DNA of 64,000 bases, from NCBI RefSeq assembly GCF_030013595.1, contig NZ_CP122768.1; one strand, 5' to 3'. Below are positions 15,001-21,000 of this stretch, piece by piece (within the stretch, counting starts at the first letter, position 1; the number at the start of each line of letters is the position of its first letter). Made by a program: the position numbers. The DNA comes from Escherichia coli. GTDB taxonomy: Bacteria; Pseudomonadota; Gammaproteobacteria; Enterobacterales; Enterobacteriaceae.

Positions 15001-18000
15001 ACGTGATCGATACGCACCGGGTATTTGTCTTTAGCCCTGCACAGGTGAAAATAACCCTCCCCTTCCGTGATCCGCCTCCAGATATCTCCCAGTTGCCTGG
15101 ATATCCGATAAGATTTGTTGTGACGTTGCCCATCCAGGTAGCCGATAAAATGAATATGAAGTCCCTTGTTTGACGTATATTCCATTACCCAGTAATATCC
15201 CGCCAGCATCGTTTGGGTTTCACTAAGTAAGCGGTGCATTTCAATACACATACTGTGCCTACAGGAATGACCAAAACTGGGCGTGTCTTTCCTGTAGGCA
15301 AAATCAATTCTGAAAGGTAACAGTTTAGAAAAACGTTGAAACAGACCTTCCATGTGTTCATTCACATCTTTCAGAATCATGAAGTCCATTTCGTAATTGG
15401 GATTAGCATTATACATTTTATAGTCCTTACTTTATAAAAGTTACAGGAAGGTGGAATTACATAAATACTGAGAGTACAGAAACGCCGTACCGCGGCATTA
15501 ATAAACGAGGTAACCAGCAGCACAGACAACCTGATAAAACTGTTTCGTATTACCTCATTACTCCAAAGAGGTAATATTTCAGAGTACAGTAAGACTCACT
15601 TAAACTGAGGACCAGTACGAATTACAATGGTAAAAACACACCTCATAGAATTGAGTTTAAGGAAGTACCATTCAATCACTTACAGGAAGTAATCTGACAT
15701 TCACAAAAGCCAGTATCGGGTAGCCACAGGCAACACCGCTATTAATACTTCTGTACCATTAAGTAAAAACAGCGACCCAGCTTGAGGCCTCTACAGATAT
15801 TTAACTTCACCATAAAAATGATGGTATACAGACCATACCCCACACACCATAAGAATATTATTTCATACAGGAAAGATTATATTTTTTCATACCTATAAAC
15901 TGTAACAGAGCCATAACATACTCTAATAGTGTTCCGGTACGTAACCAGTGTTAAGTGCGTACAAGACAACATAACAGATCACATAACTTCCACTAATAAT
16001 ACTAATTAACCTAAATTATTTATTGAACACGAAAACAATGAAGGCCCCACCTCACCTCAGACTAAAGCCGACAATATCCTGAGTAACACTCTATCCAATA
16101 GTAAATAGTGGTTACACCAGTTATATTTACTGACTGACCTGTACCAGAGTTTTCTAATACAACGCTGACATGGTAAAGACATTAGTCTCCTCCGCAAGTA
16201 GCAGAGGAGACTATATGTACTCAACGATTAAGTCGTTCAGAGGTCAAAGTTAGGTGCGACACACAACGTTTTTCCCTCAATAACCGGTACAACTCTGTTT
16301 TGTTCATACAGTAAATCCAGTAACCAGTTGATTTTATCCTTTTTCCGGAAACGGTTCGGACCACGCTGTAAAATGTCATTTTTTTTCATACAGAGGATCC
16401 CCTTCTCAATACAATAGCTTTTTATCCAGTTGAAAAGTTCAAGCTCCTCTGGAATGAGTCGCACAGGTACGGTCAGGGCAGAGTTGTCAAAAGTTAACGG
16501 ATTAGACAACCGCACATACTCATTACCGTACCATATTGCTAATTCTCTCGCCATTTCTGCAGTGTAAGGGGAAATCTCCCCCTCTTCACCGCTCGAATGG
16601 TAAATAAGTCCTGCCAGTCTTGCCATATACTCTGCATTTTTAGCAGCATATTCCCGGCAATGTCTTAAAGGCCCCAATCCCCCCAGCTTCGATTCCACAT
16701 CATTGTAATAATCCGTCCAGATTCTGGCAGCCTGAGGAGAAAAGTGAAGGCAACGTCGTTCACCACTCATCGCCAGACTTTCATCAATAAGCTCATTGAT
16801 CCTCTCTTCAAACAAATCCTGATACTGTGATGAATAATTATCTCCGGTTATTATCCTTGTCCCCTGCGTTGATGTTGGTTGACACATCAAAAACCTTGCA
16901 TGATGTCCTGACGTTTTCACAATTTCTTTTTTTCGCGTACAAAAACCTTTGTGGTAAACATCAGGCTGAATCATCACCGATATCGTCAGTCTTGGCTCCT
17001 TCAAATTAATTCCGGGAGATGATTTCCTGTCGATGAAAAGAGAACCTCCATCCCACAAAGTGTTAATAATTCCCAGTTTACTCATGGCCCGGCTGTCAAA
17101 AATTACCCCCCTTCACTGGATACAAGAGCAAAAGAGCGATTGCTATCGGAGTAATATTTTAACATTCCCTCTATCGTTGTCTCATTAAAAATTGTTCGAC
17201 GTATCTGCGGCGGAACAGGAGGTTTATTCAGATGCGTTTCAAGCTCTGATTCTGTTGCCTTGTAATCTTTACCGGCACGAATCTCTTTATGAAATTTTGA
17301 TTCCAGCGCTTTTTGTTTTTGCTCCCATATTTCCTTTTCTGTACTGTAATTCTCAACCAGTTTCGCGTATTCATCCGCCAGGGCTTCATCCCTGAGATAA
17401 AATGCTTTCATAAACACTTTATCCACGGTCGTTTTCCTTTCACCGGAATCAGCCAGAATCAGAGAGTAAAGATTAACAGGCCCATGTAAATTTCCAGGTC
17501 TGCACACGTCAATCTGATTCTGACAGGCAATTGAGATCGCTGTTAATGCGGATGTTGCCACCATAGCCAAAGGTGCCTGTGTATTTTTTTGAGTTTCAAT
17601 TATTGCATTTCTCACCAGCGGTGGTAGTGCATATATCGGATAAGGATTTTCTGGTGCAAGTAAGCACATAAAAGCCTCTCTTTTCATTAATGGGTTAGTA
17701 AAATAGCAGCAAATCCCGCTACAATAGCGAAAATAGCTGCTATTCAGACCTGATGCTCTGAGAAATACAGAGCATTTGTAGATCTGATGTTTAATAAACC
17801 GATAAGGTTAATTCAGTGAAGACTGTATTATTCACCACGAAATATCATTCATATTTCTCATTCTTAATACCTCCGGAAATTATTTCACTAATACCTTTCC
17901 CCCGGTCTTTTCCCTTTCTCGAGAACCATAGTGTAAATATTAACGGCCCCACGTAAATTTCCGGGACTGCATACGTCAACCTGATTCTGACAGGCAATTG

Positions 18001-21000
18001 ACATCGCTGTTAATACTGACATTGCAACCAGAGTCAGAGGTACTTGTTTATTGTATTGAGCTTTAATTATTGCCTTCCCTATCATTGATGGTCATGCATA
18101 TACTGAATACGACATATCCGGTTTGATGTAAGGCATAAATGCTTCCTTTTTCGTAATACGTTTCGGTTATAGCAGCAATTACCGCTACAATAGCGACAAT
18201 AGCTGCTCTTTCAACAATGAATGCTGGAAATTCTGTTTATCAATTAAACTTCTGGCTAAATTGTTCTTATGCTTCTTTTTCCTCCTGAGGTGATCACGTG
18301 ATGACAAAAACTTATCTGCTCATGGTCATATCTGAAGAAAGCGTATGTCTCACTTCGTCATTAACACCTTTGACTGCTGATCTGGCAGGTACAGTATGTA
18401 AAGTAAGCCATTCGTCAATAGCTGATGAACGCCAGCCCACAGAACCACTACCAAGACGTACCGGCCTGGGGAAGGTTGCATCGTAGTATTTCGATAACGG
18501 ATTCATTTTTTCGTAAATTGTCGAACGAGATATACCTAACAATTGGCTCAGTTCAGGCATCCGTAAGATGCGTGAAGGAGTCCTGCAGTGTCCGGATTGA
18601 TCTGGCATTTTATCCCCCATAGTGTGGTGAACTGTCGTTACAGTTTGTATTCCCCGGGTAAATTTGTCTGCGTAAAAAAATGGGTTGAGAAAAAAGACAA
18701 TAAATAATTAAAAATCAATATGATAGAAAACGACAGCATTAGTGTTATTTTACTTTTCCCTTATCGCTGTCGATTCTCATTATCATTCATGGCAAAAAAA
18801 CAGCAAAAGAGGCCCTGGTAATGACTCCTGTCAGTAGTACATGTGTTTTCGATAAATGAACCAATGGCTTTTCGTGAATTTCCAGGGAGCGTAAAAAGCA
18901 AATCGTTTTCCGGGCAGGTCGTTTGATGTGAGTACGAAGTGTCAGATTGTTGCGCTCAATGCGCCGGGTAAATATCTTGCCGACAAGATGCTTATCCTGT
19001 GGCATTTCTCTGGTATAACTGCTCCGGTTGTCTCTGGTTATCATGCCTGCGGAGAATGGCTTCAGGAATTCCGGCAACTCACGGCATGTTTCATCAGTGC
19101 GAGGACCAAAAGTGTAAGCCAGCACACCGTCAGCTTTGGTCTTATACGCGTACCAGTGCCACTGCTGACGAGCTTTGTTTTCGACAAAACTCCATTGTTC
19201 ATCAAGTTCACAGATAAGTGCCACATCGACACTGGCGGCTGGAGATATGGTTACTTTACGTGGTGAGCGTTTTTTAAAGTGAGAATGACGGTGTTGATAT
19301 CCACCTTCAGCGTTCTGGAGCTATCGCGAACCCCGGCTCCGTTATGAACCATTTCAACAATTTGCTCTTTAATGCCTGGTTTTCGGGTTTCGTAGATGTA
19401 ATTCAGTTGAAATACACGTTTGCAGGATTAGCACTGGAAACGCTCATGATCTGAGGTGCTGTGATCATAACGGTACACTTTATAGGAATTACAGCGGGGA
19501 GAATATACTGTAACTGTTGCCATATGGTCTCCAGATACCAATAGAATACAACATTAATCTATCGTCAGAAGGCATCACCGGGGCCTTCTGACATAATCTG
19601 TTAATACGTGTACTATTACCCTGTTCAGAAAATATTGATTCAAAAATGAAAACCAGTTAACAGAAAAGCAAAATGATATAATGTTAAAATTTTATATAGC
19701 GCAATAAAAGGAGAATGTTATGTATAATTTTATCACTATAATGTATGATGTCTTTTCATGTTTTGGTGTTCTGGCTAAAAACCAGAATAGCCGTGACATC
19801 CGAAATATTAAAAATTTTTCCTCACATCAACATTCACTGGGCGACATGTTTGATGAATTAATAAACATTATTGATAAAGAACAAGTATTGAGTAAAGAAC
19901 AACGAAAAGTTATATTTAGGAGATATGAAGATCTCTATGTTAAGCTAATGCACTATTCTGTTTTTACAGACAAAACACATCAAATAATAAAACAAAAATA
20001 TTTTAATGACATTGTACCAATGATTCTCGCACTCGACATCAGGAACACATATCGCCCGGATAATGAGATGGCATTTTACTATCATATTCATTCTTTTCTC
20101 ACTCAGATACCGGATAATGAGGATGATATATATCATGCTGCAAGGACATATCTGCGAAATTACGTTAAGTTATGTTTATCCGGATACACGCCAGCGAATG
20201 CGCATTTCAAAGATATCTTTGATGGCGTATATGAATTCATTCGTAATATTCGCAAAAACAGTACACCAGGAAAAACAAAACTTATCGCAACTATCAACAC
20301 ATGCAAAGAAACCTGTAAACATCTGCTTTATTTAAGTAATGAAGACAAGGAAAAAATAATTTCTGACTTAGATAAAGTTCAGGTTGCATGTTATTATCTC
20401 ACTATATTACTGGCTTTCGAAAGACGAACTTCATTAACAAGCATCCTGGCAACTTTATATAAAATGCTGATAAGCGAAAGAGAAGTTTCAGAATATGAAT
20501 GCCAGTTATTATATTTAACCAACCCAATAGATGTAATGAATATACTGAACAAATACATATATTACTTTCCTAATGAGAACTCACCATTTTATACACTGAA
20601 AATTGACAGTGCATTATCGTGGGATGCCATTGACGCAATACGAGACTATAGTATTTCTGATATTTATCTTTATCCTGAACAAAAAACAATAAATTGTGTC
20701 GTTGAGATTGAAAACATTGTCTTTGGCGGTTACATTTATACATTGAACAACGGCGTCACATTACAAAACATAGAAAACTCTTTAAAAGATTCTTCATGCC
20801 ATTATGTCTTAAATGGCTATACAGAATTTGTTAACTGTTTGAGACAACTTACTTCAGGAAAGACTGAAAGTGTTCATCGCACCATCAATAAACTGAACTA
20901 TGAGAAATTACCTTTTGGATTTATCATTGCCGCGTTTGCTATACTAAAGATAGCATTTAAAATAAAATTCAGTAAAAATCATGTAAATATCCGAGCATTA

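Follow-up and report, generated by a model that had tools for sequence, protein, structure and literature searches.

What reads a palindrome that stands between a regulator gene and a replication gene, and to what end? In a 64,000-nucleotide stretch of Escherichia coli DNA (contig NZ_CP122768.1; hereafter the window), a genomic island carries an alpA-family gene followed by a gene related to yfjI, of the DUF3987 helicase family, and a diverged direct repeat between them contains the same palindrome twice, at 17703-17743 and 18169-18209. A first-pass annotation had suggested a duplicated promoter and operator, with AlpA as a possible binder. The comparisons described here point to a different protein, YfjI, whose C-terminal domain, predicted to be a winged helix, is the most probable binder of the palindromes. 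We consider it likely that they are iteron-like units read by this domain, which would probably form the replication origin of the element and possibly also an autoregulatory operator. All genes of the part of the island discussed lie on the minus strand, as judged from open reading frame (ORF) calls and annotation.

A conserved palindrome upstream of yfjI

Palindrome A, which reads ATAGCAGCTATTTTCGCTATTGTAGCGGGATTTGCTGCTAT on the minus strand, occupies 17703-17743, with 33 nt from its end to the yfjI ATG (17669). Palindrome B (18169-18209, minus strand) is identical to it at 37 of 41 positions, and is found 103 nt downstream of the alpA stop (18312) and 32 nt upstream of the start (18136) of a dead copy of the yfjI 5′ end, here called yfjI′. 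A 37-nt core, AGCAGCTATTnTCGCTATTGTAGCGGnAnTTGCTGCT on the minus strand, has exactly two matches in the 64 kb (17705-17741 and 18171-18207), where none is expected from shuffled sequences. The 41 bp are an inverted array of GCTATT/TAGC units, in which GCTATT-TTC-GCTATT is faced by inverted TAGC. Palindrome A is the sole cluster of at least three GCTA[CTA]T hexamers in the window, against an expectation of 0.15.

An alignment of YfjI was used to scan one genome per species, and returned 80 loci, with no Vibrionaceae locus among those fetched and scanned. In 15 Enterobacterales loci of this set the motif CTGCTATTTCYGCYATTAATAGCGGAATAGC is present 45-75 nt upstream of yfjI. In this order the site is part of the alpA-yfjI transcription unit, 20-60 bp upstream of the ribosome-binding site of yfjI. 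An alignment of 20 alpA-yfjI junctions, taken from E. coli and from 12 further enterobacterial genera, shows no conserved block but the palindrome upstream of the ribosome-binding site; the flanks cannot be aligned. In Citrobacter youngae the arms are perfect over 15 bp, with two CG-to-TA changes mirrored in both of them. The search of yfjI homologues in other elements that the first-pass annotation called for has therefore revealed a conserved, operator-like cis element. A generic survey of the best hairpin upstream of all 80 homologues was uninformative outside the Enterobacterales. The alpA-yfjI junction of Kosakonia pseudosacchari (L018, 2416-2460) holds an unrelated palindrome, TATCAGTTGTG-n13-CACAACTGATA, for which our model has no explanation.

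Might the palindrome function in RNA, as a hairpin of the alpA-yfjI transcript that terminates, attenuates or stabilizes, possibly with read-through brought about by an antiterminator of the AlpA type? The sense strand folds with -26.7 and -22.9 kcal/mol (z = -4.3 and -2.8) and outdoes the antisense strand through G-U pairs; UAUUUUAC follows copy A, where a terminator-like site was flagged; and in phage-inducible chromosomal islands (PICIs) the operons are read through from the alpA promoter (PMC6092414). Stable as the hairpin is, the U-tract that an intrinsic terminator should conserve is confined to sites of the copy A type, and is absent from copy B and from all K-12-type sites. In the latter the right arm (TAGCGGAATAGC) is invariant and the left inner arm varies freely, including A-C and C-A mismatches that break sense-strand pairs. 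Moreover, elsewhere the units are also arranged as direct repeats, 20-40 nt from one another, and are placed differently with respect to yfjI and alpA, and they covary with a protein residue (see below). We therefore regard a role in RNA as highly improbable. A scan of 15-23.5 kb with Rfam gave nothing relevant at the palindrome, the one match there being a miRNA model below threshold (22 bits against a gathering score of 110, E = 0.87). The asymmetry between G-U and A-C pairs was also tried as a test for RNA and set aside; judged by eye, transitions compatible with the sense and with the antisense strand both occur in the left arm, leaving no strand signal.

Nor is a promoter conserved at the site. 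A scan for sigma-70 promoters and terminators produced non-conserved matches only, and the sole good sigma-70 match, TTGAAA-16-TATTGT in copy B, is not preserved in copy A or in relatives. The duplicated promoter of the first-pass annotation is thus not upheld.

Repeat units and the C-terminal domain of YfjI

Do such units accompany yfjI in more distant bacteria? Clusters of at least three GCTA[CTA]T hexamers number 45, in 36 of the 80 loci, compared with 1.1 expected, and a search with the arm motif in all fetched loci gave matches even in very distant taxa. A motif-free search revealed inverted sets of hexamers ~40-70 nt past the yfjI stop in ~37 loci of beta-, gamma- and alpha-proteobacteria. 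Each comprises three to four units spaced 6, 9 and 9, then a spacer of 15-40 nt, then the mirror image at 9, 9 and 6. The core of the unit across the family is TGC(T/G)A(C/T/A), represented by GCTATT in the window; depending on the locus, the consensus is TTGCTACA, CTGCTATT, TTGCTAAT, TTGCGACA, ATGCGATT or TGGCTATA. Several copies at a spacing of 9 bp (roughly helical, 9-11 bp) are what is expected of iterons.

The position of the units is variable. They are found upstream of alpA, in the gap between alpA and yfjI, or 40-260 nt past the yfjI stop, and in well over half of the 80 loci there is a site within 1.5 kb of yfjI. Pseudomonas, Shewanella and Marinobacter have a compact palindrome upstream of alpA instead. 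The spacer between the sets is not AT-rich in many beta-proteobacterial loci; on a plasmid of Legionella oakridgensis (L093) the sets are non-coding and separated by an AT-rich spacer of 33 nt. The units are conserved at the level of DNA, since L049 and L043 have the second set in different reading frames (ISKIS and LAKLA, respectively), and the sets are non-coding in L045 as well as in L093.

In many of the beta-, gamma- and alpha-proteobacterial loci (L026-L084, ~0-150 nt past the yfjI stop) an ORF that begins M-S-L-A-x-L-I-R/K-K overlaps the yfjI stop (ATGA), for example at 3919-4257 in L061 and 3922-4398 in L049, and the inverted units lie within its first ~50 codons. The lambda origin, inside gene O, provides a parallel. 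Genes of the YfjI family are also present on MOBF/MPF_F conjugative plasmids of several Legionella species (L091-L093).

These positions bear on the proposal that the palindrome is an operator or binding element for AlpA, by which transcription of the island genes would be controlled. Copy B and all single-copy enterobacterial versions do lie directly downstream of an alpA-family gene, and in PICIs and Pseudomonas aeruginosa AlpA proteins bind DNA and act as activators or antiterminators (PMC6092414, PMC7969949). However, essentially the same palindrome is found behind three types of AlpA that are 26-51% identical (that of K-12; that of the window, 51% identical to K-12 AlpA; and a type II, at ~26%). 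Copy A has no alpA directly upstream, only a 135-bp spacer and the dead fragment of copy B; the ~37 distant loci have their units past yfjI, far from alpA; the Legionella plasmid loci carry units without any annotated alpA; and the sequence of the unit covaries with a residue of YfjI. The site does not track AlpA, and no conserved -35/-10 elements that AlpA might control surround it. A search of PDB sequences with two AlpA types retrieved none of the complexes of P. aeruginosa AlpA, its one match being a weak one to the AlpA-family protein 8c3t. Of the earlier suggestion, the conserved operator-like element stands and AlpA as its binder does not; we hold that assignment to be very improbable. 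A palindrome beside alpA is not automatically one that AlpA reads.

The protein that does change with the units is YfjI. It belongs to PF13148 (DUF3987) and matches PHROG 2373, 'DNA helicase'. One DUF3987 protein is a 5′-3′ helicase that partners a primase-polymerase (PMC11724360), and PICMI satellites, with their int-alpA-prim core, depend on the DUF3987 gene prim for replication (PMC10803314). In other taxa the YfjI-family protein is fused to Toprim, PrimPol or PriCT domains; the enterobacterial YfjI has no primase domain. The model of its C-terminal domain, encoded at 16240-16452 (minus strand), is confident, and the closest folds are winged-helix domains, including those of archaeal ORC2/Cdc6.

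We aligned the final ~125 residues of YfjI for 52 loci with confidently typed units. The residue two before a near-invariant Gly-Pro is Arg in all nine loci with GCGA units and Gln in all 43 with GCTA units, i.e., it follows the third base of the unit, Gln going with T and Arg with G. In the window the codon for this Gln is at 16366-16368 (minus strand), in KKNDILQRGPNRFR. These combinations are classical pairings of side chain and base: Arg or Lys with guanine, and Gln with the adenine of a T:A pair. The G/T state of the unit requires at least eight changes on a neighbour-joining tree of the helicase core from which the C-terminal domain was left out, and seven on a tree of the whole protein. 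Sister loci can differ in both residue and unit, as do L061 (Gln, GCTAC) and L072 (Arg, GCGAC), and likewise L078 and L066. Loci outside the covariation set also fit the prediction. GCGA palindromes accompany Arg in L046 and Lys in L080, and in two of the three Legionella plasmid loci examined (L092 and L093, both with Arg) TGCGACA repeats directly follow the gene.

A further lead had come from the K-12-type sites, whose centre (CTATTAATAGCGGA) resembles the nick region of f1 gpII, together with the neighbouring 'inovirus-type Gp2'/YfjJ gene. It was dropped because YfjJ-like genes occur in L019 without the palindrome and are absent within 2.5 kb of the distant unit-bearing loci, and because the covariation points to YfjI.

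If YfjI binds the units, as we infer, what does binding achieve? We favour an origin or helicase-loading site because of the variable position of the units around yfjI, their mirrored multi-unit architecture and the nature of the protein. The place of the enterobacterial site, within the alpA-yfjI unit and only a short way upstream of the yfjI ribosome-binding site, makes an autoregulatory role plausible, in addition or as an alternative. Taken to its limit, this would make the palindrome an operator alone, through which YfjI controls yfjI (and the downstream ORF in other taxa), with the origin elsewhere. The compact inverted form and location of the enterobacterial site agree with such a role, as does the lack of a clear AT-rich unwinding element between the arms in the window, and the covariation with YfjI fits it as well as it fits an origin. 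Initiators of iteron plasmids, too, repress their own genes at inverted half-iterons. Nevertheless, a position that is not fixed relative to the gene (upstream of alpA, past the yfjI stop in most other loci, or non-coding with an AT-rich spacer on a Legionella plasmid) suits an origin better than an operator bound to a promoter, and arms of three to four units at 9-bp intervals are reminiscent of iterons such as those of PICI origins (PMC6092414). We think it unlikely that the site is an operator alone.

Several observations weigh against assigning the sites to YfjI and to an origin. The enterobacterial site, with two to three units per arm, a centre of 3-4 nt and no AT-rich spacer between the arms, looks more like an operator than a classical origin. 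Judged by eye, the DNA adjoining the window sites is only moderately AT-rich (68% for A, 62% for B); the 45 nt that follow the K-12 site are clearly AT-rich. The covarying residue is at the end of helix 2 in the model, and not in the canonical recognition helix. Locus L018 has Gln with an unrelated palindrome, and no site was seen at the yfjI loci of L019 and of pLPP (L091). Two further loci are ambiguous: L038 has Lys and a GCTAT cluster 700 nt upstream, and L023 has Arg and only a weak GCTA palindrome. Lastly, the sites in the window may be orphaned because its yfjI is frameshifted, and a paralogous island would then have to supply YfjI.

On the origin reading, AlpA-dependent activation of the island would come first. 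YfjI would then assemble on the inverted units and open the neighbouring AT-rich DNA, so that replication of the excised element could begin, the site being the origin itself or the place where the helicase is loaded. In Enterobacterales, occupancy of a site inside the alpA-yfjI unit would probably also feed back on the expression of yfjI. More speculatively, the winged-helix domain could read its units by a code of a single residue, Gln for T and Arg or Lys for G, and repeated flips of this code could give related islands and plasmids in one cell mutually exclusive origins; in E. coli, palindrome B could serve YfjI as a further cis site, one that sets the copy number or links read-through from alpA to replication. 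We view this extension as rather doubtful; were it true, palindrome B would act like crr of P4 or like a handcuffing site.

The repeat, its history and the genes of the island

How did the window come to have two palindromes? A repeat search finds blocks at 17455-17655 and 17922-18122 (201 nt, 77% identity) and at 17671-17744 and 18137-18210 (74 nt, 74%). The spacing from copy to copy is 466-467 bp and the overall identity ~77% (23% diverged), with which a pairwise alignment agrees. The first-pass annotation was correct in describing two diverged copies about 466 bp apart, each of which joins a palindrome to the 5′ end of a yfjI-like gene, and in placing the second downstream of alpA. Its repeat of ~270 bp with the first ~65 codons was too short: the homology covers ~335 bp and 88-100 codons, and ends at ~17403 in copy A and ~17880 in copy B.

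Copy A (17403-17744, minus strand) spans the palindrome and the ribosome-binding site and reaches ~88 codons into the full-length yfjI-like gene. Copy B (17880-18210, minus strand) contains the palindrome, the ribosome-binding site and the truncated yfjI′ fragment, with a 10-bp deletion in the window relative to other strains. Identity between the two is uneven, at 37/41 in the palindrome, 19/33 from there to the ATG, 57/90 in codons 1-30 and 99/120 in codons 31-70. The yfjI′ pseudogene (17888-18136, minus strand) starts with the ATG at 18136 and opens MPYIKPDMSYSVYA, then meets an in-frame TGA (18092-18094) at codon 15. The 65-aa 'DUF3987' ORF (17888-18085, minus strand) begins at an ATG internal to it, and other strains have copy B annotated as a partial or pseudo gene. 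What had been proposed as a decoy start is consequently a decaying pseudogene, and the 'DUF3987 domain-containing protein' mini-gene often annotated in enterohaemorrhagic and other E. coli can be explained as a recombination scar.

The copies are separated by 135 bp (17745-17879, minus strand) unrelated to either, in which 81% of columns are invariant and whose final ~50 nt are similar to the end of type II alpA (3′) and to the intergenic region that goes with it. This is not the head-to-tail arrangement, with no foreign DNA between, of a strict tandem duplication. Also within the spacer (~17834-17876, minus strand) is a strong Shine-Dalgarno sequence, GGAGG, followed by a nine-codon mini-ORF, MRNMNDISW*; both are kept in each of the seven duplicated E. 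coli loci that were compared.

About a quarter of the complete E. coli genomes (~1400 of 5426) have the region, with up to four matching places per genome. The arrangement with the spacer occurs in ~1338 of these genomes, with identity falling as low as 86%, from which we deduce that it is old and of single origin. Junctions with one copy (alpA stop, palindrome, yfjI) also exist, e.g., in CP4-57 of K-12 and, with an A-type palindrome, in strain 99E2750, and A-type (L004) and B-type (L003) junctions each occur alone, which likewise speaks against tandem duplication. In duplicated loci the upstream alpA is either that of the window or the very different type II, and the homology between these two kinds of locus starts exactly where palindrome B has its left edge. 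In one duplicated strain (L089) copy B is A-like. From these sequences we infer that the duplication is a scar, left when two diverged alpA-palindrome-yfjI modules were joined and the DNA between them deleted. It looks more like such a recombination product of island modules than like a duplication selected for regulation.

Across six diverged E. coli loci, the fraction of invariant columns is 90% in palindrome B, 71% in the pseudogene and 83% in the intact coding region of copy A. To judge from the alignment, palindrome B, the best-conserved segment of the locus, seems to have been kept by selection or gene conversion, and on account of that conservation it may still be in use.

Of the core genes of a phage satellite the window has all three: int, a P4-type integrase gene by annotation (21724-22926, minus strand); alpA, here called type III (18312-18608, minus strand), with an IS1 remnant between the two in minus-strand order; and yfjI (16237-17669, minus strand). 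The island is ridden with IS elements, and its yfjI is frameshifted into ORFs of 194 aa (17103-17687) and 282 aa (16237-17085), both on the minus strand. The region is 99.9% identical in E. coli O103 RM8385, whose annotation concurs with the gene order; there the intact YfjI-like protein has 477 aa, with C7 in place of the C6 (plus strand) found at 17106-17111 of the window. This one-nucleotide difference in a homopolymer could reflect a real pseudogene, phase variation or a sequencing error. Searched against NCBIfam, the AlpA, YfjI and Gp2-like proteins were placed in no family.

Two minus-strand genes (12338-14722 and 14853-15416) are found downstream of yfjI. One is YfjJ/'inovirus Gp2'-like; the other encodes a protein of 794 aa that combines a primase-polymerase with an SF2 helicase and is a TOTE conflict system in the annotation of a near-identical genome. 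An AT-rich ORF of 605 aa, to which no function was assigned, lies at 19720-21537. Beyond the integrase gene, two type I-F repeats of the CRISPR (clustered regularly interspaced short palindromic repeats) kind, at 23321-23348 and 23381-23408 with 32 nt between them, make up an orphan mini-array. The second reads GTTCACTGCCGTACAGGCAGCTTAGAAA as its reverse complement, and the two match Rfam CRISPR-DR4 with 30 and 50 bits. The mini-array adjoins an RtT RNA unit (23144-23278) and the integrase end of the island.

Comparison with known systems

The principle of an element that encodes its own initiator or helicase, with iterons beside the gene, is already well known from P4, from PICIs and the Staphylococcus aureus pathogenicity islands (SaPIs), and from iteron plasmids. 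Our literature search turned up neither a cis site described for YfjI/DUF3987 proteins nor a CP4-57 origin. These helicases are the replication gene of CP4-57-like islands, of PICMI-type satellites, of many proteobacterial islands and of Legionella conjugative plasmids, and the present analysis supplies for them a candidate origin or operator with a defined unit, and a predicted DNA-reading residue.

The alpha protein of P4 is a primase-helicase whose C-terminal winged-helix domain binds repeated octamers at two separate cis sites, and P4 also encodes an AlpA-family protein (Vis) and a P4-type integrase. The island in the window resembles the alpha/ori/crr system in having a helicase with a C-terminal winged-helix domain (predicted for YfjI), two candidate cis sites, an alpA-family gene and a P4-type integrase. 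It differs in the sequence of the units and in the absence of a primase domain from enterobacterial YfjI, and its second site, copy B, is linked to a pseudogene and has only a putative role.

AlpA of Gram-negative PICIs switches on its own promoter and the operon downstream; excision and pri-dependent replication follow, and two sets of iterons adjoining the replication gene make up the origin (PMC6092414). The likeness to pri-rep-ori of PICIs and SaPIs is one of layout: a core of int, alpA and a replication gene, with short units in two sets beside the gene for the initiator or helicase (PMC6092414). PICI origins, however, are 3′ of rep and flank an AT-rich region, whereas the site in the window is 5′ of yfjI and compact, with almost no spacer, and the initiator proposed here is a stand-alone DUF3987 helicase.

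The PICMI satellites of Vibrionaceae have the same core gene set, int-alpA-prim, prim being a DUF3987 gene (PMC10803314). Their hosts are different, and a search of that report met with no origin or iterons (PMC10803314). A tblastn search of plasmids, with a beta-proteobacterial YfjI as the query, returned Legionella and enterobacterial plasmids. We have treated the repA-oriV of PIME/GIsul2 as a different system; the paper describing it does not call repA a DUF3987 protein (bioRxiv 10.64898/2026.01.12.698999). The AlpA binding element (ABE) of P. aeruginosa likewise pairs a regulator named AlpA with an adjacent element that forms a hairpin (PMC7969949, PMC9371919), but no such promoter is conserved at the window site, and the palindrome does not track AlpA.

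Iteron plasmids share with the loci studied here short units at helical spacing, in direct and inverted arrangements, beside the gene for the initiator. The initiators of pSC101, F, R6K and P1 have two kinds of target, namely direct iterons at the origin and, at the initiator's own promoter, inverted half-iterons. Those Rep initiators have two winged-helix domains and no helicase activity; the reader that we propose for the units beside yfjI would instead be a winged-helix domain fused to the helicase itself.

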